Below are positions 10,560 to 59,252 of a DNA stretch of 64,000 bases, in pieces. Origin of the DNA: an uncultured Verrucomicrobiota bacterium (lineage in GTDB: Bacteria > Auribacterota > JABMQX01); the NCBI GenBank assembly GCA_964640185.1, contig CAZXGF010000007.1, forward strand, positions 43,452 to 107,451. The letters run 5' to 3'. Within the stretch, counting starts at the first letter, position 1, and every line of letters starts with the position of its first letter. The position numbers were made by a program, and so were the translations under genes. The notes beneath the pieces are model-generated. The model was not told where the DNA came from. It made no database searches and worked only from the letters and a program-made list of their open reading frames with translations.

Positions 10560-12629
10560 TTACGGCCGGCCTTTGGACACCGGCCAGGTGGCGCGAAACT
10601 CGTCCTGATAGAGGCCAATTTTATCAAAGCGAATCTTTTTGAACACGGGGATTTTCCGGTAAACGATGGAATCATCTTTCAGTTGGAAATTCATCTTCGC
10701 GGCGTCCACAAACCCCGGGTCCTCGTCGGTAATGAAATTATCTGCGACCTTGATATATTTCCTGTCCGGATCGTGCCAACTGCTCCGGTAGGACACATTG
10801 TTCACGACGACGTTGCCGAGCGGCGCCTGCGGGTGCTCCTCCAGAATGCGCGCCAGTTTCGGATACCTCATGCTCCAGGGCGGTTGCTTAATCCTGAACC
10901 GCTTGAGCGGCTCGTACATGGGCCCGCCAGGACGGAAGTGGTCCCAGGTCAACCCTCGCGTGTCGAGATGCACAGGCTGTTCGCACTCGATAAAGATGTT
11001 ATTCTGCACGATGTTGTCTCGCCCGCCCCCGATAAACGCCGACTCTCTCGTTTCATAAAAGACGTTGCCGAAAATCTCCGTCGAGCTGGCGCAGTCGTCA
11101 AGGTAAACCACCTTCGAGCCGAAGCCCGGCCTGAAGGGAATATGATGTATGAAGTTGTATCGCACCACGTTCCCCCGAAACGTCCAGTCGCGCCCAGTGT
11201 AGAGAACCCCCGCATCGCTCGACTCTAAGACAACATCGTGAATCTCGTTGAGCTCGATGAGGTGGTCGTTGCCGTCATACCCTATCGCCTGATGGGGGGC
11301 ATCGTGAATCAAGTTATGTGCGACCCGGTTGCCCACGCCCTGAATTTTCACCCCCGGGTACCAGGTTTTCAAGCACCTTGCGTAATGATGAATGTGATTA
11401 TTGATCGCACAAAGCCCCGCCGGAGCGAGCGTTTTCCGGTCCCCGCCCGACATGCGAATCCCCATCGCATCCAGATCGTAGATGTCGCAGCCCACAACGC
11501 CGTTCTCCTTTCCGCCGGCCAAGATGACCCCCTGACTCGCGTGGCGGATGACGCATCCGGCGATGCGGTTGTGCTGGCCCGCTCCTACCACTATTGCCAG
11601 CCCGCGCATCACTTCCAGAGTCAAACCCCGGATAGTGATGTACGATGTGTTATCCAGCGACACCATTGCTTCCTGCAACATTGAAGCCAGCAGCGGGCCT
11701 TTCCGAAAATCCTCCGGAGGCAGGAAGTACAAGATGCCTTTCTTGCGGTCGAGATACCACTCCCCGGGCTGATCTACCTCCTCCAGCACATTCACGGCGA
11801 AGAAACGCCGCCACGTCTGCAAATGAGGAGGGGCACGCCAGCCCAGAAGGATTTCCCGCCTCTCCCGGTCGAAGCCGACCGGATTCCAGCCGTCATATTG
11901 ATACTCCTGCTGCCAGTAGCCGCGAAGCCAAACCGCCTCCAGAGTGCCCCAGAGGTTCGGAGAATCTCCGCTATACTTGAACGCCAAAATCTTGCCCAGC
12001 TTGCCTTGCTTTGCTAATCGCGCCGCCGCATCCTCATCGAGGCCGACCGCCTTGGCGCTGCGAGCCAGCGCCCAACCTTCATTGGGCCAGCGAGCCAATT
12101 GCATTCGCTTCCCGTTGCGAAATAATTTCAGCCCACCCGCCAGGCTTCCCAGTTCGCCGTAATCTGTGATCCCATGCTCTCTCAGATTGACCTGGAGCAC
12201 TTTGCCGCGAACCCCTTTCTCCAGGCGTCTGAGAACGCCGGGGTCCTTCACCGGCTCAAACCACGACGCTGGCAGTTCTTCCCCGCCCACCAGGCGCACT
12301 GTTTCCTTGCCGTACGCACGATATGTTACCGGCGACTCTTTCGTCCCCGAATCCTCCTGCGTCAATTGAAACGTGTGCGTGCGATGGTACAGCCCGCCCC
12401 TGATCCAAACCGTAACCGGTTCCTTCAACGAGCCAGCCTCCTTTAGCCTGCGGATTGCATCGCGCGCGCCCTCAAGGCTCCGGAAAGGACTCTCTTCTGT
12501 CCCGGCGTTGGCATCACTTCCGTTCGTCGCGACATAGAGCTCGACGCCCCTGCCCATATCGACCGCTGACACCTGCAGGAAAACCACAAATGCAATGGCC
12601 GCCGTAAGAGTCACCTGCTTCGCTAGCAC
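10560..12629 (-). CDS. Right-handed parallel beta-helix (pectin-lyase fold, DUF1565-like) secreted protein, paralog A
   Basis: 689 aa with signal peptide. DUF1565-type N-terminus (LYVATNGSDANAGTEESPFRSLEGARDA). The C-terminal ~260 aa are near-identical to the paralog at 13575..15716. Confidence 0.75.
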   Translation of the reverse strand: MLAKQVTLTAAIAFVVFLQVSAVDMGRGVELYVATNGSDANAGTEESPFRSLEGARDAIRRLKEAGSLKEPVTVWIRGGLYHRTHTFQLTQEDSGTKESPVTYRAYGKETVRLVGGEELPASWFEPVKDPGVLRRLEKGVRGKVLQVNLREHGITDYGELGSLAGGLKLFRNGKRMQLARWPNEGWALARSAKAVGLDEDAAARLAKQGKLGKILAFKYSGDSPNLWGTLEAVWLRGYWQQEYQYDGWNPVGFDRERREILLGWRAPPHLQTWRRFFAVNVLEEVDQPGEWYLDRKKGILYFLPPEDFRKGPLLASMLQEAMVSLDNTSYITIRGLTLEVMRGLAIVVGAGQHNRIAGCVIRHASQGVILAGGKENGVVGCDIYDLDAMGIRMSGGDRKTLAPAGLCAINNHIHHYARCLKTWYPGVKIQGVGNRVAHNLIHDAPHQAIGYDGNDHLIELNEIHDVVLESSDAGVLYTGRDWTFRGNVVRYNFIHHIPFRPGFGSKVVYLDDCASSTEIFGNVFYETRESAFIGGGRDNIVQNNIFIECEQPVHLDTRGLTWDHFRPGGPMYEPLKRFRIKQPPWSMRYPKLARILEEHPQAPLGNVVVNNVSYRSSWHDPDRKYIKVADNFITDEDPGFVDAAKMNFQLKDDSIVYRKIPVFKKIRFDKIGLYQDEFRATWPVSKGRP
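10575..11360. repeat. ~0.78 kb near-identical direct repeat, copy 1 (3-prime part of beta-helix gene A); partner at ~13618..14400
   Basis: Direct reading: the DNA is almost base-for-base identical between the two tracts. Identity stops abruptly at ~11340/14380, although both genes continue as diverged paralogs. Confidence 0.85.
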
Positions 12630-13574: not shown

Positions 13575-15716
13575 CTACATGCCGCCGCGCCGAAGGCCGG
13601 TGTTGCCGCCTGCGTTCGACACCGGCCAGGTGGCGCGAAACTCGTCCTGATAGAGGCCAATTTTATCAAAGGGAATCTTTTTGAACGCGGGGATTTTCCG
13701 GTAAACGATGGAATCATCTTTCAGTTGGAAATTCATCTTCGCGGCGTCCACAAACCCCGGGTCCTCGTCGGTAATGAAATTATCTGCGACCTTGATATAT
13801 TTCCTGTCCGGATCGTGCCAACTGCTCCGGTAGGACACATTGTTCACGACGACGTTGCCGAGCGGCGCCTGCGGGTGCTCCTCCAGAATGCGCGCCAGTT
13901 TCGGATACCTCATGCTCCAGGGCGGTTGCTTAATCCTGAACCGCTTGAGCGGCTCGTACATGGGCCCGCCAGGACGGAAGTGGTCCCAGGTCAACCCTCG
14001 CGTGTCGAGATGCACAGGCTGTTCGCACTCGATAAAGATGTTGTTCTGCACAATGTTGTCTCGCCCGCCCCCGATAAACGCCGACTCTCTCGTCTTGTAA
14101 AAAACGTTGCCGAAAATCTCCGTCGAGCTGGCGCAGTCGTCAAGGTAAACCACCTTTGAGCCGAAGCCCGGCCTGAAAGGAATATGATGTATGAAGTTGT
14201 ATCGCACGACGTTCCCCCGAAACGTCCAGTCACGCCCAGTGTAGAGAACCCCCGCATCGCTCGACTCGAGGACTACATCGTGGATCTCGTTGAGCTCGAT
14301 GAGGTGATCGTTGCCGTCATACCCTATCGCCTGATGGGGGGCATCGTGAATCAAGTTATGTGCGAGCCGGTGGCCGACGCCGTAGATTCTCACCGCCGGC
14401 TGATAGACCTTCTTTCGCTGCGAGTAATGATGAATGTGACAGTTCACCACATAATTCCCCGCCGGAGTCAGTGTCGAGCGGTTTCCGCCGGTCATGCGAA
14501 CGGCCGTCGAGCCCACCTCGTGAATATCACACCCGAGGACGCCGTTGTTCGTCCCGCCGTCCAAAACGACAGCATGAGAGCCTATGCAGCGGACGACGCA
14601 TCCCGCGAGGCAGTTATGTGTCCCGCCTCCCACAACGGCCCCCACGCCGCGCGTCACTTCGAGAGTCAGTCCTCGAATTGCGACGTAGGAAGTGTTGGCC
14701 AGCGTCACTAACGGCTCCTTCAAGCTGGAGCAGTATAATGTGTGCTTCCGAAAATCCTTTGGAGGCCAGAAGTACAATACGCCTTTCTTGCGGTCGAGGA
14801 ACCATTCCCCCGCCCGGTCTATCTCCTCCAAAAGGTTCAGCGCATAGAACCACTGCCCGCTTTTAATCCCGCCACCCGGAGTCGAGACGAGCGTGATTTC
14901 CCTCTTTTCCGTATCAATGCGCTCAATCCCGACGTGCTGATCCATCCAGCCGTACCACCAGAAGCCGTGCAATACAACTTCCTCGGCATTGACCCAGCGT
15001 TTCGGGCGGTCGCCGCTGTACCTGAACGTCTTGCCCTGCTTGTTTCCATCCACCAGCCGCCGCGCCGAATCCTCACCGATTTCGATGACCTTGCCGATAT
15101 GAGCCCAGCCTTTATTGGGCCAGCGCGCAAGTTGCATCCGGCTGCCGTTCCAAAACAGCTCCAGCATCGGCCCGGAAATCGAAAGCTCACCGTAATCGGT
15201 GATGCCGCGAGCCTTCAAATCCACCTGCAACACTTTGCCGCGAGCGTCCCTATCCAAACGGCTCAGAACCGCTGTGTCTTTCACCGGCTGGAGCCACGAC
15301 GGCTTTATCTCCAGCCCGCCCACGAGACGCACGTTTTCCTTCCCGTAAGCCCGATAGAGCACCGGCGCCTCTTTCGTCCCCGAATCCTCTTTGGTCAACT
15401 GAAACGTCTGCGTGCGATAGTAAACGCCGTCCCGAATCCAAACCGTAACGGCGCCCTTCAGCGGCCCGGACCGCTTCAGGCGGCGGACGGCGTCTCGCGC
15501 ACCCTCCGGGCTCCGGAAAGGTTTTCCTTTCGTCCCGGGATTGGTGTCGCTTCCATCGCTCGCGACGTAGAGCTCAACAGTTTCTGCTGCGGCCGCCGGC
15601 AGATGCGGAGCGGCAGGGGACAGCAAAGCGGACTGAGCCATTGCAGCGTAACCGGCGGGAACGAGGCACGCCGAAAACAGTAAAACCGTAACTTGCTCAC
15701 GACGGAAGAAATTCAT
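13575..15716 (-). CDS. Right-handed parallel beta-helix (DUF1565-like) secreted protein, paralog B
   Basis: 713 aa with signal peptide. N-terminus ELYVASDGSDTNPGTKGKPFRSPEGARDA. The C-terminal third is near-identical to paralog A. Confidence 0.75.
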   Translation of the reverse strand: MNFFRREQVTVLLFSACLVPAGYAAMAQSALLSPAAPHLPAAAAETVELYVASDGSDTNPGTKGKPFRSPEGARDAVRRLKRSGPLKGAVTVWIRDGVYYRTQTFQLTKEDSGTKEAPVLYRAYGKENVRLVGGLEIKPSWLQPVKDTAVLSRLDRDARGKVLQVDLKARGITDYGELSISGPMLELFWNGSRMQLARWPNKGWAHIGKVIEIGEDSARRLVDGNKQGKTFRYSGDRPKRWVNAEEVVLHGFWWYGWMDQHVGIERIDTEKREITLVSTPGGGIKSGQWFYALNLLEEIDRAGEWFLDRKKGVLYFWPPKDFRKHTLYCSSLKEPLVTLANTSYVAIRGLTLEVTRGVGAVVGGGTHNCLAGCVVRCIGSHAVVLDGGTNNGVLGCDIHEVGSTAVRMTGGNRSTLTPAGNYVVNCHIHHYSQRKKVYQPAVRIYGVGHRLAHNLIHDAPHQAIGYDGNDHLIELNEIHDVVLESSDAGVLYTGRDWTFRGNVVRYNFIHHIPFRPGFGSKVVYLDDCASSTEIFGNVFYKTRESAFIGGGRDNIVQNNIFIECEQPVHLDTRGLTWDHFRPGGPMYEPLKRFRIKQPPWSMRYPKLARILEEHPQAPLGNVVVNNVSYRSSWHDPDRKYIKVADNFITDEDPGFVDAAKMNFQLKDDSIVYRKIPAFKKIPFDKIGLYQDEFRATWPVSNAGGNTGLRRGGM
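13618..14400. repeat. ~0.78 kb near-identical direct repeat, copy 2 (3-prime part of beta-helix gene B)
   Basis: See copy 1. Identity begins at ACACCGGCCAGGTGGCGCGAAACTCGTCCTG in both copies. Confidence 0.85.
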
Positions 15717-18295: not shown

Positions 18296-18386
18296 ATTCG
18301 TGCCCTTGCGAGTTGTGTATTGTGCATGAGCGAGGCAAAGCACTCAGTTATTACTCCGAGCGCTATCCAGTTCACAGCATCCTTAG

Positions 18387-18899
18387 GGCTCCGGTTCATA
18401 AATTCGGTGACGTATTTGCTGGGACAGGATAACAGGATGGACATGATTCTTGGAATCCTGTTTTATCCTTTGCGAAATGTCCTTGGCCTTTCGCTTTACC
18501 TCAACTTCTCACGTACTGGCTTACCGGCGGCAACGAGCGGGTTAATGAGTTGTGGCTCCTGAGCCACCACAATGACCGGCTCGACCCCGCGGCACGCGGG
18601 CCTCGACGATGACCATATCTCTTTTGACCCAACCATGACTGACCCGGAAGGTCTGGAGCAACGTGGCACGGGCGTCTCGCCCGTGGTCTCGCCCGTGGAA
18701 GGTCATGGGCAGGATGCCCATGCCACGTCTTCTCCGACGATTCCTTGCCGTTCGTGCTCTTTGACCCGGCGGCCCGCCGGCCTGTGATTTACTGGATGCT
18801 TCACGTCTCCAGAACAATCCCGTTCACGCCGATGGCGTGATTATCCCGTCAAAATAGCTCCTTTCACGACACCATCATACGTCACCCGATTTGCGAATC
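18387..18899. mobile_element. MITE-like non-coding element, copy 1 (imperfect ~25-30 bp terminal inverted repeats, TA target duplication)
   Basis: Left end TA|GGGCTCCGGTTCATAAATTCGGTGACGTATTTGC. Right end ATACGTCACCCGATTTGCGAATCCATGTACT|TA. The termini are reverse complements (GGTGACGTAT / ATACGTCACC). A second copy lies at 54928..55379. This copy contains an internal fragment of the R1 hairpin. Confidence 0.6.
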
Positions 18900-18906
18900 C
18901 ATGTAC

Positions 18907-19521
18907 TTAGGCAGCGGCATAAACGACATGTTCTTCTCGAAAGTGACTTGTGACGATGTCCGGTCGGTGCCGGGTGCTGCGGAGGTAGGCCCGAACCTGC
19001 CCTATCATTTCTTTCGGGTTGTGGGGACGCTGACGGCCAACCGCATTGGTCTTGACATCTTGATTGACAAGCTCGTCCGGATTCAGTTCCGGACTGTAAG
19101 AGGGCAGGAGGAACATACGGATGCAGTCGGACTGGCGAACCAGCCGGCGCTCGAGCTCGCCGGAGCGATGGACGGGATGGTGATCCACGATGAGGAACAT
19201 CTTCCGTCTCGTATGCTTCAGTAAGCGGCGAAGGAAGCGCATCATCACCTTGGAGCTGAACCGGTCCTCGAAAACCATAAACGCCAGTTGGCCCCTGCTG
19301 GTGATGGAGGACATCATGTCACAACCAATGCGTTGACCGGCCCCAGGAATGACCGGCGTCCGACCGCGTTTCCCGTACGAGCGACCCGCTTCATCCAGCC
19401 GTTGACCGCAACGCGAGAAACTTAGAACACCCGCGCCACCACGCTGTGACTCATGTTCTGTTGCGGGACCGCCGCCGCCACCCGACGGCGGAGGCCTTCC
19501 TGCGCTTCCGGAGAAAGGCAC
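18907..19521 (-). pseudogene. IS630/Tc1-family transposase remnant (C-terminal DDE region only)
   Basis: Hallmark motif FLLPSYSPELNPDE plus LIVDHHPVH. The N-terminal HTH and first catalytic Asp are missing, and upstream sequence is replaced by the R1 repeat. Lies directly next to the MITE right end. Confidence 0.7.
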
Positions 19522-19694
19522 CGTGCATCTTTAATAATCATACATAGAACTAACCTCCTCGTCAATTATATAATGCCCCCGTTAGTAATCCCTCAGTCTC
19601 GGGCGGGACATGGGGACTTTGGGGTAAGAGTCATGCGCAAACATCAACATCCCGCGGGACGCGGGACCCCAGGTCAGGCTCTGCGCCTCACGGC

Positions 19695-19906
19695 CAAAAG
19701 AACAGCCGTCCCCCCATGTGGCATCCCGCTGGGGGCGGGACCCGTGGAAATCATGGGCAAGATGCCCATGCCACGGCAGGCGACCACGGAGTCTCTCTCA
19801 TTCTCCTCTCTGCGCCTCTGCCCCGCGTCTCGCGGGGTTACCCTCCTCCTCCCTTTTTCCCTCCGCCGCCTTGGCGGCGTATCGGCCTGAGACTGAGGCA
19901 TTACGG
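19695..19906 (+). repeat. R1 structured repeat, copy A
   Basis: Two hairpins (CCCGC-TGGGG-GCGGG and CATGGGCA-AGA-TGCCCATG), then a CT-rich tract ending GAGACTGAGGCATTAC. Homologous copies at 45040..45247 (-), 52198..52403 (+) and 56465..56640 (+). Confidence 0.8.
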
Positions 19907-19923: not shown

Positions 19924-19952
19924 TTGACACTTGAGGGGCAATGGAATATAGT
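19924..19952 (+). promoter_or_regulatory. Near-consensus sigma70-type promoter (TTGACA-17-TATAGT) upstream of tRNA-Val
   Basis: TTGACA at 19924-19929, exact 17-nt spacer, TATAGT at 19947-19952. Predicted TSS ~19959, 40 nt before the tRNA 5-prime end. Confidence 0.5.
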
Positions 19953-19998: not shown

Positions 19999-20075
19999 GG
20001 GCGATTAGCTCAGATGGTTAGAGCGTTAGCTCGACACGCTAAAGGTCACTGGTTCAAGTCCAGTATCGCCCACCA
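19999..20075 (+). tRNA. tRNA-Val (anticodon GAC), CCA encoded
   Basis: Cloverleaf by hand: acceptor GGGCGAT/ATCGCCC, D-arm GCTC/GAGC, anticodon stem TTAGC/GCTAA with loop TCGACAC, T-arm ACTGG-TTCAAGT-CCAGT. C at loop position 33 is unusual. Confidence 0.8.
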
Positions 20076-27357: not shown

Positions 27358-27369
27358 GCTGAGACATAT

Positions 27370-27560
27370 ACCCTACCGTGCCCGTAGCACAACGAAGAAT
27401 CTTTGAGCCAACAGTACCGAATCGGGAGCCATGATTGGGTCGCTTTTGCAAGTACGCTCAGGAAAGCATACAGCATCCTTGAGGGCACCCACTTTGACAA
27501 ACAAGCGTTCAAAGATCTCGTTGATACGGCATTAAGGTAGGGTTTTTTTATGTCCTCGGG
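27370..27560 (+). ncRNA. Candidate 6S RNA (ssrS) locus - hypothesis from synteny and end-pairing
   Basis: A 223-nt non-coding gap after zapA, with rarA and a 5-formyl-THF cyclo-ligase next. 5-prime CCCTACC(GTGCC) can pair with 3-prime (GGCAT-taa-)GGTAGGG, and a T7 run follows. Confidence 0.25.
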
Positions 27561-44595: not shown

Positions 44596-45035
44596 AATAT
44601 TGATGTGGCTCCATTTCAGTGGCGGAACTGTCCTTGGACCTAACCCGTGCCGGAATCTCGACCCCATCCCAACACTCACCTTTACGAAGAGGAGAAAACG
44701 CCGGGCCATTCGAACTGGACTCGAGGAATCTTTCGAGTCGTGACGCACATATCTCGCCCTTTCAGGGCTCATCATTCTTGAACCGGGGCCCTTTCTCAGG
44801 GCGTTGCCCTGAGCTTTATTAAGTCTGCCCTTACAGGGCGACCCGAAAGCAATCTTCAGCCCTGAAAGGGCGCAATATTTTAGCCCAGGGCAACGCCCTG
44901 GGGAAATATCACGTGGTAAAATACAAAAGCCCTGAAGGGGCGTAATAGGCTCATCCCCAATACACGGTTCGCACCAGACACACGACAGCGGACCCGCGTG
45001 CCACTGAAATGGAGCCACACCCAATAATATGGATG
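44596..45035. repeat. Cluster of nested palindromes bounded by inverted copies of TGGCTCCATTTCAGTGG
   Basis: Inverted motif copies at 44603-44628 and 45003-45030. Inside: GCCCTTTCAGGGC / AGCCCTGAAAGGGC and the perfect palindromes CAGGGCGTTGCCCTG and CAGGGCAACGCCCTG. Confidence 0.6.
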
Positions 45036-45039
45036 AGAG

Positions 45040-45247
45040 TGTAACGCCTCCGTCTGGGGCGGGTACGGAGCTGCGGGCGAGAACAAGGGAAAAGGAGGGT
45101 AACGCAAAGGCGCAGAGTCGCAGAGAGGAGCATGAGAAGGACTCTGTCGTCGCCTGCCGTAGCATGGGCATCTTGCCCATGATTCCTCCACGGGTCCCCC
45201 GCCAGACGCGGGGGATGCCGCGTGGGCGACGGCTGTTCTTTTTCACC
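45040..45247 (-). repeat. R1 structured repeat, copy D (minus orientation, upstream of the minus-strand ABC operon)
   Basis: Hairpin 1 is extended (CCCCCGC-GTCTG-GCGGGGG). Hairpin 2 is CATGGGCAAGATGCCCATG. CT-rich tract follows. Confidence 0.8.
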
Positions 45248-45793
45248 TGAAAGGCGCAGCCCGAGCCGGCGTCCCGCGTCCCGCGGGATGTTCATGCTTT
45301 CGCATTGCTCTTGCCGCAAAGTCCCCCTATCGCACCCGCAACTGAGGGATTACAAAAAGAATCTTACGCTCGGGCGAGCGCTCCCCAATGGACCGGGGGC
45401 GACCGCAGCACACGTCGGCCCCGGCTCTCACACCAGAGGGAGAAAAGAATTTTTCGCTTGGGGGCGTAATGCCTATGCGATACGATAGGTGCGTTATGCA
45501 AAGAAGCCCCATTCAAAATCTGCCGGGTCACAGCACACCCAATAGCAATTCTGTCGAGCATCTATTCCATGACGAAGAGTGGCAGTTCGGGGGGGATGGC
45601 TAAATCCGGCACACCGCTGCTACCGGGGCGTACGCCCCTGGCGGCGCCGGAGCTCGGAATGCGATTCAGTTTGTTCCGCGGCTCGTGCAAAGGGGCCGCG
45701 ACGTGTGATTGACAACCGCGCTCCGCCGCAGAAAAGAGTTAGAATGGGAAATGCTGGCGTCGAGCTCGAAGACGTGGGAAAAGGAAACGAGAC

Positions 45794-51691: not shown

Positions 51692-52197
51692 CCCTCGAGA
51701 CTCGCCGTTAGGCGCAATCTCGGTTTGTCCGAACCCTTGCTTTCTGCCTCACCACCGCCGCAACGTAAAACCGGCGGCCGACTTACATCGAAAAGATGTC
51801 CGCCGGCGAAATGCGGACTCGGCGCCCTGATTTCCTTTTCCGCGAGCGTATTTGATATGAAGCTTTATCGCCCCTTTGGTCTGTCGAAACCTCGCCCAAT
51901 CGAAAACACTTAAACACAATCTTCTGGTACTGGAATCCCATGTGAATATCTTGTTCCTGATACGAATTGGATTACTACGTTTCAGTCCCTGGAACCTGTT
52001 CGGCGTACCGAGAAACGATTGCATGTACATTTGACACAGTCCCTTTTCATTGGCGTCAGCAGAAATGGAACTACGAACCTCCGAAACTCCCAGATGGTAG
52101 CCCACGTTCGTCGCTTGTTATCGTAAGTCCCTGATTTGCAAGGGGCCGATTTTTCAGTTTGTCATTACATCGCCCTTTCAGGGCTGTACCCTTCGCG

Positions 52198-52403
52198 GCA
52201 AAAAAAGCCGCTCCCCACGTGGCATCCCGCCGGAGGCGGGACCCGTGGGAATCATGGCCAAGATGGCCATGCCACGGCAGGCGAAGACGGGTTCCCTCTC
52301 ATCCTCCTCTGTGCGACTCTGCGGCTTTTGCGTTACCCTTCTCTTCTCTTTCTCCCTCCCCCGCCGTGGCAGGGCATCCGCCCAAGACTGAGGCCATACA
52401 CGC
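52198..52403 (+). repeat. R1 structured repeat, copy B
   Basis: Hairpin 1 is CCCGCC-GGA-GGCGGG. Hairpin 2 is CATGGCCAAGATGGCCATG, a double compensatory change versus copies A and D. It is preceded by a GCCCTTTCAGGGC motif. Confidence 0.8.
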
Positions 52404-52418
52404 CCTTCGTAATTGTCT

Positions 52419-52447
52419 TTGACAAGCGCCGCACGGCGCGGTACACT
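52419..52447 (+). promoter_or_regulatory. Near-consensus sigma70-type promoter (TTGACA-17-TACACT) upstream of gatB
   Basis: TTGACA at 52419-52424, 17-nt spacer, TACACT at 52442-52447. About 95 nt before the gatB GTG. Confidence 0.5.
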
Positions 52448-52546: not shown

Positions 52547-53974
52547 GTGGAATACGAAAGCGTCATCGGACTGGAGGTCCACGCGGAACTGAAGACCGAC
52601 ACGAAGATTTTCTGCGGTTGCTCGACCGAGTTCGGCGCCGAGCCCAACACGCAGACGTGCCCGGTGTGTTTAGGTCTGCCGGGCGTTCTGCCGGTCTTGA
52701 ACGAAAAGGCGCTTCGATATACAGTGAAGGTTGGTCTGGCTCTCGGATCCGAGATTTCCTCGTTCAGTAAGTTTGACCGGAAAAACTATTTCTATCCGGA
52801 CCTGCCGAAGGACTTTCAAATCTCGCAGTACGACAAGCCGCTGTGCCGAGGGGGCGCCGTGGAGTTCTCCTGCAACGGCGAGAAGCGGAAAGTCGCGCTG
52901 ACCCGTGTGCATCTGGAGGAGGATGCCGGAAAGCTGATACATTTCCCTGACGGGGAAAGCGGCGTGGATTTCAACCGGGTCGGGATTCCTCTCCTGGAAA
53001 TCGTGAGCGAGCCGGAGATACGCTCGCCGGACGAGGCCTATTTCTATCTTCTGGAGTTGAAGCTGTTGCTGAAATACCTCGATGTCAGCGATTGCAACAT
53101 GGAGGAGGGTAGCCTGAGGTGCGACGCGAACGTGTCCGTGCGTCCAAAGGGGCAAAAGAAGCTGAGCACGCAAGCGGAAATCAAGAATATGAACAGTTTC
53201 ACCGGAGTCCGCCGGGCCCTGGCCTACGAGATCGAGCGCCAAATCGGAGTGCTGGAGGGCGGGGGGAGAATCGTTCGGGAGACGCGGCGGTGGGACCCGG
53301 ATTCGCAAAGGACAGCTTCCATGCGAAGCAAGGAATGGTCACATGATTACCGCTATTTCCCTGAGCCGGACCTCGTGCCTTTTGTCCTCGAAAAAGCCTG
53401 GATTGACGAAGTGCGCGCCACCATACAGGAGCTGCCGGAAGCTCGCAAGGGACGGTTCATGGAGCAATACGGGCTTTCGGAGTACGACGCCGGAGTCCTC
53501 ACCGCCCAGAAAGCTTTCGCCGATTATTACGAGGAATGCGCGCACCTCCATGACAATTACAAGGCGATCTGCAACTGGGTCATGGGTGGTGTCCTCCAAG
53601 AATTGAATGCGAGAAAGATTTCTATCGGAGACCTCCCGATCTCCCCGAAGATGCTGGCGAACATGGTCCGCATGATAGACGATGGTAGAATTACCAGCAA
53701 TATCGCCAAGGAGGTTTTCGCGGAAATGTCGGAAACCGGCAAGCCTCCGGACAGAATCGTCGAAGAAAAAGGGCTGTCACCGATAACGGACGCGGGGGAA
53801 ATCGAGCGGGTTGTCGAGGAGGTCATCGAAAACAACCCCAAGCCTGTCCGGGATTTCCGCTCCGGTAAAGAGAGAGTTATCGGCTTTCTCGTGGGGCAGG
53901 TGATGAAAGCTGTCGGAGGAAAAGCTGACGCCCGGTTGGTCAACAAGATATTGAGAGAAAAGCTGAAACAGTAA
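52547..53974 (+). CDS. gatB: Asp-tRNA(Asn)/Glu-tRNA(Gln) amidotransferase subunit B
   Basis: GTG start with an AGGAGGA SD. YESVIGLEVHAELKT...FDRKNYFYPDLPK. C-terminal GatB/YqeY domain. Confidence 0.95.
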   Translation: MEYESVIGLEVHAELKTDTKIFCGCSTEFGAEPNTQTCPVCLGLPGVLPVLNEKALRYTVKVGLALGSEISSFSKFDRKNYFYPDLPKDFQISQYDKPLCRGGAVEFSCNGEKRKVALTRVHLEEDAGKLIHFPDGESGVDFNRVGIPLLEIVSEPEIRSPDEAYFYLLELKLLLKYLDVSDCNMEEGSLRCDANVSVRPKGQKKLSTQAEIKNMNSFTGVRRALAYEIERQIGVLEGGGRIVRETRRWDPDSQRTASMRSKEWSHDYRYFPEPDLVPFVLEKAWIDEVRATIQELPEARKGRFMEQYGLSEYDAGVLTAQKAFADYYEECAHLHDNYKAICNWVMGGVLQELNARKISIGDLPISPKMLANMVRMIDDGRITSNIAKEVFAEMSETGKPPDRIVEEKGLSPITDAGEIERVVEEVIENNPKPVRDFRSGKERVIGFLVGQVMKAVGGKADARLVNKILREKLKQ

Positions 53975-54819: not shown

Positions 54820-54927
54820 GCTCCCATTGTCTTTGCGCAACTGTCCACTCCTCCGATAGCCCTCCGACCGACTGCCTCCCCGCACACTTTCATCTTCCCC
54901 CCGAAATATGGGATGGCCCTGCTTAAT

Positions 54928-55379
54928 GCTCCGATTCATAAGTTCGGTGACGTATTTGCCTCGACAGGATAACAGGATGGACATGATTCTTGGAATCCTG
55001 TCTATCGTTGCGAAAGGTTCTTGGCGTTTCGCTTTACCCCAACTTCTCACGTACTGGCTTACCGGTGGCAACGACTTCTGCTAACGAGTTGTATCTCCTG
55101 AGCCGCCACAACAACCTCGTTGATACACTTCCGCTCGACGATGACTGTGTGACTTTCGACTCCGCCATGGCTGTGCAGGAAGGTCTCGAACAACTTCGCC
55201 GCCAATTCCTTGCGCTTCGTCGTCTTTCACCAAGCGGCCTCTCCGGCGTGTGATTTACTGGATGCTTCACGTCTCTGGAACAATCCCGTTCACGCCGATG
55301 GCGTGATTATCCCGTCAAAATAGCTCCTTTCACCAGACCATTATACGTCACCGTATTTGCGGATCGATGTACTTAACCT
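54928..55379. mobile_element. MITE-like element, copy 2
   Basis: Left TA|ATGCTCCGATTCATAAGTTCGGTGACGTATTTGC. Right ATACGTCACCGTATTTGCGGATCGATGTACT|TA. The ends are ~85-90% identical to copy 1 and the internal region diverges. Confidence 0.6.
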
Positions 55380-56043: not shown

Positions 56044-56464
56044 GTCCGATCCTTTCACGAAGAATAGGTTAACCGCGGCTCAAACTGCGTCACGCGCACT
56101 GCCCGAAGCCTCGCCCGCGCCTTCCGCGTGAGCTGTCGTTAAACCGGTCTAACCTGTTTTCTACACGTATTCCCAGTCCTTTAGCCACTGATATTCCTGG
56201 GGCAACTTCGTCCACATCTCGTCGGTGGCCTTCTTCAGTTCGGCAGCCTCCGCGATGTCGAGCTGCCGCCACACCACAAAATCATGTCAATTCAACGTAT
56301 CACAAAGCTCACCAAAACGCCAACGGGGCCATTCACGGGGGTATGGCTCCATTTCAGTGACACGCGGGCCACCTTTCGCTCGCTTGGCGCAGGCGGCGTG
56401 TTTCCGAGGGACGAACCGGGAGGGTGACGCAAATCCCTTCCCTCACCTCCCTGTGTGCGGATAG

Positions 56465-56640
56465 GCGTCGCACGGGCGTCCCGCCCGTGAAGCATCATGA
56501 ACAAGATGCCCCTCCCACGGCAGGCGACGACGGAGTCCTTCTCATCCTCCTCTCTGCGACTCTGCGCCTTTGCGTTACCCTCCTTTTCCCTTGTTCTCTC
56601 ACGCAACTCGGTATCCGCCCGAGACTGAGGCCATACGCCG
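56465..56640 (+). repeat. R1 structured repeat, copy C (hairpins degenerate, CT tract intact)
   Basis: ...CATCATGAACAAGATGCCCCTCCCACGGCAGGCGACGACGGAGTCCTTCTCATCCTCCTCTCTGCGACTCTGCGCCTTTGCGTTACCCTCC... Flanked by TGGCTCCATTTCAGTG-type motifs. Confidence 0.7.
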
Positions 56641-56938
56641 CACCCACTTTTTTAGGGGTGTGGCTACATTTGAGTGGGTGATCTTGCCAAGTGCAACGCC
56701 ACCCCGCCATGGCGGGGCGGTCTCGAGGGCGTCTCGCCCTCGATTCTTTCTTATATCCTTTGCGTCTTCGCGTCTTTGCGAGAGGTCTCCCCCGTCCCAT
56801 TTCTCCCGCTAAGAAGCCAAGCGTCCTGTCCATCTTGTTTTTGACTTGCGGTTCTTCACTCCGAGTTCTGCGACGCGGAACAAACAAACCAAGGGCGAGT
56901 TCTCTACCACTTAAACGTAGCCGCACCCACTTTTTTAG

Positions 56939-59180: not shown

Positions 59181-59252
59181 GGCGGCATAGCCAAGTGGTT
59201 AAGGCAGAGGATTGCAAATCCTTTATCCTCGGTTCGAATCCGGGTGCCGCCT
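59181..59252 (+). tRNA. tRNA-Cys (anticodon GCA)
   Basis: Acceptor GGCGGCA/TGCCGCC, anticodon stem GAGGA/TCCTT with loop TTGCAAA, T-arm CTCGG-TTCGAAT-CCGGG. CCA not encoded. Confidence 0.9.

Follow-up and report, generated by a model that had tools for sequence, protein, structure and literature searches.

R1, a dispersed repeat in a 64,000-nucleotide stretch of DNA (hereafter the window), is the right two-thirds of a MITE of 304-377 bp. It is recognized as part of a MITE by terminal inverted repeats, 8-bp target duplications and orthologous sites that are filled in one place and empty in another. The ends of the element stand in phase with neighboring promoters, the -35 box lying 19 bp outside the element. 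R1 is probably the promoter-facing part of this MITE, the insertion of which would be targeted at a fixed distance from promoters that were already in place. From comparison of the sequences, we infer that the 19-bp phase arose from the choice of target rather than from later selection.

Anatomy of the element

The element is bounded by terminal inverted repeats of 22-24 bp (GTAAYGCCTCAGTTACGGGCGG ... CCGCCCGAGACTGAGGCNNTAC). The end consensus, GTAAYGCCTCAGT(T/C)(A/T)CGGGCGG ... CCGCCCG(AG/TA)ACTGAGGNNNTAC, bounds 40 non-redundant elements; 248 terminal motifs were found in all, and the spacing of their inverted pairs is 304-377 bp, a few excepted (212, 278, 445, and 597 bp). Perfect target duplications flank 13 of the 40 non-redundant complete elements (twelve of 8 bp and one of 9 bp), and all 13 differ in sequence (e.g., TGCTCGCC, CCTTTTCC, and ATAAGGCG); the other 27 complete elements have no perfect duplication. 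A TA duplication, as in elements of the IS630/mariner type, and a GTAC target were considered and rejected in view of the duplication length of 8 bp. The interior is assembled from palindromic modules in a mosaic, the left part of which exists in several alternative versions, and it includes a third hairpin and a polypyrimidine C/T tract of approximately 70 nt.

Hairpins 1 and 2, together with the flanks GTGGCA...TGCCAC, form a nested mini-unit of 55-67 nt at the center of R1. A solo mini-unit of 67 nt (18662-18728, plus strand), organized as CGTGGCA-hairpin 1-hairpin 2-TGCCACG, is inserted in another repeat of the window. The second copy of this host repeat lacks the mini-unit (at 55199/55200), and the two copies are thus a clean filled/empty pair. 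Approximately ten solo mini-units of the form GTGGCA-CGGGCGTCCCGCCCG-...-CATGGGCAAGATGCCCATG-CCAC were also seen in metagenome loci (L013, L021, L048, L052, L054, L056, L059, and L066), and the mini-unit may be a separate REP-like mobile unit.

Four copies of R1 are present in the window, where each of two core patterns gives 4 matches against 0.00 expected from shuffles. The copies (A, B, C, and D) can be aligned over approximately 200 nt and have in common two hairpins, the pyrimidine tract and the terminal GAGACTGAGGCNNTAC. Indels separate the copies and rule out a small protein encoded on the purine-rich strand. Copy A (19585-19904, plus strand) is a complete MITE of 320 bp with 22-bp inverted repeats at 19585-19606 (left) and 19883-19904 (right). 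The reverse complement of the right terminus is found on its upstream side, and when the copy is folded as single-stranded DNA its ends pair (-83.3 kcal/mol versus -58.9 +/- 3.8 kcal/mol for shuffles, z = -6.4). Copy A has no target-site duplication, and a predicted promoter lies 19 nt outside each of its two ends. Copy D (45041-45353, minus strand) is a complete MITE of 313 bp, also with 22-bp inverted repeats (45041-45062 on the pyrimidine-tract side and 45332-45353 on the other); there is no -35 box at 19 nt from it, and another repeat begins 18 nt beyond its end. Copy B (about 52170-52399, plus strand) consists of the right part of the element only, retaining hairpins 0-3, the pyrimidine tract and the right inverted repeat (52378-52399) and lacking the left one. 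Copy C (about 56451-56636, plus strand) is likewise a right part, without the left end and with a different left module; beyond its right inverted repeat (56615-56636) lie other repeat modules (56700-56790) and no -35 box.

A preliminary description of the window had presented R1 as a dispersed non-coding repeat family placed non-randomly upstream of genes, with four copies at these positions, two hairpins followed by a pyrimidine tract and a fixed ending in each, and a fragment lodged inside a different repeat. This picture is borne out by the pattern matches and the alignment, and the fragment proves to be the 67-nt mini-unit at 18662-18728, which is absent from the second copy of that repeat. 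The locations given for the copies were right but their boundaries were drawn too short, as copies A and D are complete to their 22-bp inverted repeats.

Distribution of the family

Among GTDB species representatives, the R1 core pattern is found in one genome only, the MAG JABMQX01 bin.280. This MAG gives its name to the placeholder phylum JABMQX01, or Ca. Tuxefiota, for which 4.1-4.5 Mb and 56-65% GC are reported (PMC11382960). The GC content of the window is 57.8%, and its nearest named protein relatives are only 58-66% identical; the window is thus probably from this phylum or from an uncultured lineage close to it. In JGI metagenomes the core pattern was found in at least 115 stretches, mostly from the sample series that contains the contig of the window. 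A profile search (nhmmer) of approximately 1 Mb of metagenome contigs, which had been selected for carrying the element, returned 188 matches at no fewer than 102 non-redundant places, with 70 copies of full length. Over the right 158 nt the per-column identity is about 85-99%, and similarity ends sharply at ...GAGACTGAGGCNNTAC; conservation inside hairpin 2 is inflated in this comparison because the loci were collected with a pattern that lies inside hairpin 2. The flanks of the copies are unrelated, with 2 close pairs (reaching 60% likeness) among 134 ends. Collections of plasmids and viral contigs contained no match to the element.

Position relative to genes and promoters

Gene orientation was assigned with our own crude codon-usage gene caller. 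By these calls, the element and the gene beyond its pyrimidine-tract end are co-oriented in 50 of 58 non-redundant copies; on the opposite side, the neighboring gene is directed away from the element in 38 of 57. Where both neighbors were called (n = 53), 31 copies lie between divergent genes and 2 between convergent genes.

The -35 box (TTGACA with at most one mismatch) was searched for at offsets 0-59 from the element end. At 134 independent ends, it lies at offsets 18, 19, and 20 in 5, 36, and 4 cases, respectively (45 in total), against a mean of 0.56 for each of the other 57 offsets and no more than 3 at any one of them. For the 77 right ends alone, the counts of TTGACA at the same three offsets are 3, 24, and 4. 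Of these right ends, 29 have a full -35/-10 match versus 3.2 in shuffles. When all ends are taken, outward -35/-10 matches number 32 at offsets 18-20 versus 9 elsewhere in the range 0-200. The flanks have the profile of a promoter: positions 1-12 carry no signal, a T-tract occupies 13-17 and TTGACA 20-25, and TAnnnT follows after approximately 17 nt. The promoters referred to here are consensus matches, that is, predicted sites and not mapped transcription starts. At about 60% of the ends there is no good -35 box 19 nt away; positions 13-17 are still somewhat enriched in T at ends of this kind.

A -35 box is present at 32 of 79 pyrimidine-tract ends versus 13 of 55 other ends. The orientation bias is thus real but partial, and it is attributable to the promoters seen in the flanks of the element. 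Every copy had previously been described as co-oriented with the next gene; the tendency is confirmed by the 50 of 58 copies above, but it is not universal, and either end of the element can face the start of a gene.

Where the duplication is intact, only one side of the element has a promoter, in the order duplication, 11 nt, -35 box. The end of such an element is exactly 19 bp from the -35 box because the 8-bp duplication is followed by 11 nt. No duplication is seen at elements that have a promoter on each side. In the window, an element end lies at exactly 19 nt from three of the five near-consensus sigma-70 sites. Beside copy A, the promoter of tRNA-Val/thrS (TTGACA-17-TATAGT; 19924-19952, plus strand) follows a 19-nt spacer, GGGAGCGGGGGATTTTTTG, that starts at 19905. 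On the other side of copy A, a predicted promoter on the minus strand (TTGACG-17-TATGAT; 19565-19537) is separated from the left end by a spacer of 19 nt that extends to 19584, and this promoter would drive an ORF at 18907-19521 (minus strand). The gatB promoter beside copy B (TTGACA-17-TACACT; 52419-52447, plus strand) follows the 19-nt spacer ACGCCCTTCGTAATTGTCT, which starts at 52400, and gatB itself starts with GTG at 52547. A search of the literature on promoter-phased MITEs found nothing directly comparable. To our knowledge, no bacterial element has been reported whose position is phased to the -35 box of dozens of unrelated promoters.

Promoters older than the insertions

The gatB promoter and the ATTGnCTTTGACA stretch upstream of it are kept in six relatives that are free of the element (L123-L128; GatB 74-87% identical). 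In these relatives the promoter reads aATTGnCTTTGACA-N17(...GGCGCGG)-TAnnnT, with no element upstream of it and no canonical copy nearby. Similarly, the tRNA-Val spacer and promoter (TTTTTTGTTGACA...TATAGT) are kept in L131 (ThrS 83% identical), which is element-free and has unrelated sequence upstream. Another relative, L130 (ThrS 86%), carries a diverged member of the family that ends at the position of copy A, and here too the spacer and promoter are conserved. This is the only diverged element among the relatives L123-L131, in which there are no canonical copies. In the window, L130, and L131, homology at tRNA-Val starts within the spacer.

The promoters of gatB and tRNA-Val predate the element, given that they are kept in relatives without it. 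Since homology among the relatives begins in the spacer, the 19 nt are host sequence, made up of the 8-bp duplication and 11 nt. Furthermore, the relatives run the same promoters without the element, which is therefore not required by them.

Choice of target or selection afterward

The mechanism that we propose begins with a DDE transposase, presumably of the IS66/ISBst12 type, that would move the element in trans. The 8-bp target would be chosen with 11 bp between it and the -35 hexamer, which puts it at about -55 to -48, adjoining the T-tract at about -45 to -40. In E. coli promoters, positions -55 to -48 correspond to the upstream edge of RNA polymerase cover and to the distal UP subsite. 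The guide might be the shape or bend of the UP-like DNA upstream of promoters, or else the polymerase bound at the promoter. Of the two ends, the one with the pyrimidine tract faces the promoter about twice as often, and the palindromes of the element may be sites for the transposase or for host factors. It is a tentative suggestion, and one we hold with some doubt, that the transpososome reads promoter architecture, either via the holoenzyme (the alpha C-terminal domain or sigma) or via the T-tract/UP-like shape. For elements with two promoters and no duplication, a secondary rearrangement has to be assumed. Our conjecture is that these elements, such as copy A, are secondary products of two neighboring insertions, arising for example by deletion between like ends.

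The main rival to targeted insertion is a selected or domesticated promoter-upstream module, dispersed by transposition and then retained, in which the end of the element at about -56 helps the promoter and the phase is a functional spacing. Such a module could be a site for an activator or nucleoid protein, a 'supercoil buffer' or insulator that a cruciform and polypurine-polypyrimidine DNA would form where promoters diverge, or a block to read-through. This would be in keeping with the phase being exact to within 1 bp, with the 31 of 53 copies between divergent genes, and with an element rich in palindromes and endowed with a C/T tract of approximately 70 nt; the position of the element beside three of the five best consensus promoters in the window and the retention of a diverged element at the place of copy A in L130 also fit. 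However, nearly all off-phase insertions would have to be lost, given that only 9 outward promoters lie elsewhere within 200 nt. In addition, the six relatives use the same gatB promoter without the element, about 60% of ends are without a promoter at 19 nt and the hairpins decay freely. Selection alone is a poor fit since it predicts that distances should spread beyond 19 nt, a spread that is not seen. We regard the selected module as unlikely, and targeted insertion as the better account of the phase.

The two readings differ in what they would mean. As a type of element, a MITE is ordinary; the unusual property is single-base precision relative to a functional signal that recurs hundreds of times in each genome. 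Should the phase come from targeting, it would add a new way in which a DDE transposon selects its target, and it would offer a natural tool to mark or perturb promoters as well as a means of computational promoter finding in an uncultured candidate phylum. A transposon that reads promoters would, if true, parallel in prokaryotes the integration of Ty3 and TRE5-A that RNA polymerase III directs, and the element would gain a 'safe harbor' beside the genome's strongest promoters. Should the phase come from selection, the element would amount to a promoter-upstream module in wide reuse.

Hairpins and other interpretations

R1 resembles REP, BIME, and REPIN sequences, which are also arrays of GC-rich palindromes in intergenic DNA at high copy number, and the mini-unit of 55-67 nt that occurs both solo and nested adds to the resemblance. 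In a family of this type, a RAYT (Y1/HUH) transposase would mobilize the palindromes in single-stranded form. REPs, in contrast to R1, have no such terminal inverted repeats and no target duplications, lie mainly after genes and are tied to RAYT. The 8-bp duplications and long inverted repeats of R1 mark a DDE enzyme and not HUH 'peel and paste,' and the element lies upstream of promoters and not at gene 3' ends, with 2 of 53 copies between convergent genes. No RAYT gene was seen in the part of the genome covered. It is very unlikely, then, that R1 is a REP/BIME/REPIN-type repeat.

The hairpins had at first been taken to indicate selection on the structure of RNA or of cruciform DNA, on the grounds that their sequences change between copies while pairing is kept. 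In such a reading, R1 would be a structured non-coding RNA or a cis-regulatory leader, maintained by compensatory substitutions and transcribed with the gene or ahead of it. Hairpins are indeed present in every copy, copies tend to be co-oriented with the downstream gene and hairpin 2 of copy B contains one true double substitution, a G-to-C change matched by a C-to-G change. The differences in hairpin 1 that had been cited beside it do not hold up as compensatory changes, being mostly swaps among alternative palindromic modules such as TCCCGC-TGGAG-GCGGGA, CACGGGCG-TC-CGCCCGTG, and TCCCCCGC-CTCTG-GCGGGGGA.

Pairing was counted over 70 full copies, with G-U taken as pairs on the sense strand and A-C as G-U pairs on the antisense strand. 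Hairpin 2 has 4 compensatory changes versus 48 pair-breaking cells, with 6 G-U and 10 A-C; hairpin 3 has 13 compensatory changes versus 130 pair-breaking cells, with 26 G-U and 22 A-C. The double change in copy B is one of the 4 in hairpin 2, and three other copies have a single-sided intermediate only. The covariation check that had been suggested thus goes against selection on structure, as double changes are rare, most departures from the consensus break pairs, and G-U and A-C are balanced, leaving no asymmetry between strands. On these counts, the hairpins are best described as inherited palindromes that are decaying by mutation, with no functional strand indicated.

The position of the element also argues against a transcribed structure. 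Because a predicted sigma-70-type promoter stands between the element and the gene, R1 would be outside the transcript of the downstream gene, and a consensus scan found no promoter-like site inside copies A or B. For the 31 of 53 copies that lie between divergent genes, neither flanking promoter would read through the element. A comparison of all four copies with Rfam 15 gave no match at the gathering score or at E <= 1, in accordance with the earlier description, in which the repeat could not be matched to a known family. Finally, a structured RNA would leave the inverted-repeat ends and the 8-bp duplications unexplained. We consider this interpretation extremely improbable; hairpins that change and remain paired in a repeat family need not mean RNA.

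No more credible is the idea that the element is a mobile promoter that donates its own -35 and -10 boxes to genes, which would account for the constant distance between the end and a -35 box, with a -10 box 17 nt further on. 'Putative mobile promoters' have been described as highly similar upstream regions of unrelated genes (Matus-Garcia et al. 2012, PMC3488235). In R1, however, the copies are alike only as far as ...TAC, 19 bp short of the -35 box, and the duplication falls between the element and this box. The spacer, the hexamers and the 17-nt gap at gatB and tRNA-Val are orthologous to those of element-free relatives.

Several other candidates were rejected. A Rho-dependent terminator or insulator acting on the upstream gene was suggested by the C-rich, G-poor tract; it is rejected as the main role because that gene diverges from the element in 38 of 57 copies. 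An intrinsic terminator formed by the element end and the T-tract of the spacer is not supported by any terminator-like site at the ends of copies A or B, and in relatives the T-tract is conserved together with the promoter, of which it forms part. The single-strand mechanism of IS200/IS605, considered because 19 nt is like the cleavage distance of IS608, is excluded because the 19 nt are host DNA and duplications exist, and guide-RNA targeting of the IS110/IS1111 kind is excluded because the flanks beside the ends share no sequence. A sigma-54 promoter in the GGGTGYGGCTNCATTT module that follows copies C and D has a spacing that misfits -24/-12, and the module is another repeat.

Relationship to known mobile elements

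The ends of the element begin with GTAA and the duplication is 8 bp, as in the IS66 family/ISBst12 group, and from these features the MITE family, a new one, is probably derived from IS66/ISBst12. Published ends of the IS66 family start with GTAA (GTAAGCGTCCGG... and GTAACCGTCCGGGCA; PMC12888890), and ISDge4, a member of the ISBst12 group, has the ends GTAACTGCTCAGCA and an 8-bp repeat (PMC12898284). The ends of R1, GTAAYGCCTCAG, share with those of ISDge4 the GTAA start, and both elements have an 8-bp duplication. MITEs derived from IS66 are likewise short, non-coding and multi-copy; R1 differs from them in that its interior is a mosaic of swappable palindromic modules and in that no cognate transposase-bearing element was found in approximately 1 Mb of related contigs. 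An autonomous element with R1 ends was not found in these contigs, in plasmids or in viral contigs. Inverted pairs of ends 700-4000 bp apart enclose no transposase, and the sole candidate, of 3.2 kb, contains a sulfatase gene and truA. The approximately 1 Mb of element-bearing contigs has no long multi-copy DNA and no IS66-type transposase was seen in it. The only transposase-like ORF seen is a fragment with a DDE_3 (IS630-type) domain at 18907-19521. We know of no report that IS66-family elements insert at a fixed distance from promoters.

Correia repeat-enclosed elements are MITEs of Neisseria that are intergenic, measure about 100-150 bp and have inverted-repeat ends. They are often near gene starts, affect transcription and fold as long hairpins. 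They duplicate TA and supply their own promoter hexamers and an IHF site, whereas the promoter beside R1 is that of the host, located 19 bp outside the element and beyond the 8-bp duplication. Ty3 and TRE5-A of Dictyostelium integrate upstream of RNA polymerase III genes under the guidance of the transcription machinery, and they are the closest analogue of the possible mode of placement of R1. These are, however, eukaryotic retroelements with known protein tethers; R1 is a bacterial DNA transposon, and its tether is hypothetical.

The IS1202 group (dif/pdif) and the Tn5053/Tn402 'res hunters' likewise keep a fixed distance and a preferred orientation to a short functional DNA site. Members of the IS1202 group are reported 5 bp away from the XerC site in a single orientation (PMC10132070). 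In the case of R1, the site would be a sigma-70 promoter, of which there are hundreds per genome, and not a recombination site, and R1 is non-autonomous. In E. coli, IS5 and IS1 insert upstream of bgl, glpFK, flhDC, and fucAO at preferred sites linked to DNA structure, namely regions of stress-induced duplex destabilization (PMC5493358, PMC8836124). In contrast to R1, IS5 and IS1 have few hot spots, located 100-200 bp upstream, where they activate silent operons, and they have no genome-wide 1-bp phase with the -35 box.

Other repeats and genes in the window and related loci

Other RNA matches in the window (Rfam and tRNA searches) are tRNA-Val at 19999, tRNA-Cys at 59181, 6S RNA at 27367-27547, and Acido-Lenti-1 at 44858-44902 (minus strand). 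The Acido-Lenti-1 match is within a dispersed repeat of approximately 320 nt (44701-45022, minus strand) that adjoins copy D. This repeat is present in at least 9 other loci, among them L061, where it is 92% identical over 322 nt. The distant relative L125 has two copies of the 46-nt core of this repeat, one of them immediately upstream of its gatB promoter. Here the Acido-Lenti-1 motif may belong to a mobile repeat instead of being an sRNA gene in its own right.

Different repeats also lie close to the gatB promoter in relatives without R1. In L125 (9700-9880) and L126 (1090-1210), a repeat of the form GGGGCGCAATA..CCATAGCCCAGGGC..GCCCTGGG is found upstream of this promoter and ends about 10-20 nt before its -35 box. 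The upstream edges of promoters may collect repeats generally in this lineage. In L123 (8880-10000; GatB 82%), the gatB promoter and first 36 codons are duplicated around an inserted nucleotidyltransferase/HepT-like toxin-antitoxin pair.

The repeat termed a 'MITE' in the preliminary description is a further family, with copies at 18382-18910 and 54922-55375. Its first copy abuts the ORF at 18907-19521 (minus strand), which encodes 204 amino acids with a DDE_3 (IS630-type) domain (E = 1e-26) and is without the usual N-terminal part; the predicted promoter of this ORF is 19 nt from the left end of copy A. More short modules are found around the elements in both orientations, at 56640-56790 in the window and in L002, L008, L012, and other loci, examples being GGGCGAGACGCCCTCGGGACTGCC..GGCGTTACATAGATGG, GGGTGYGGCTNCATTTNNGTGGCA, and runs of CGCAAAGG-type octamers. 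Lastly, the window contains two tandem paralogous genes (10573-11785 and 13615-14830) that are 87% identical over 1.2 kb, one of which, in the JGI annotation of the contig that matches, is a Pel9A-like beta-helix protein.
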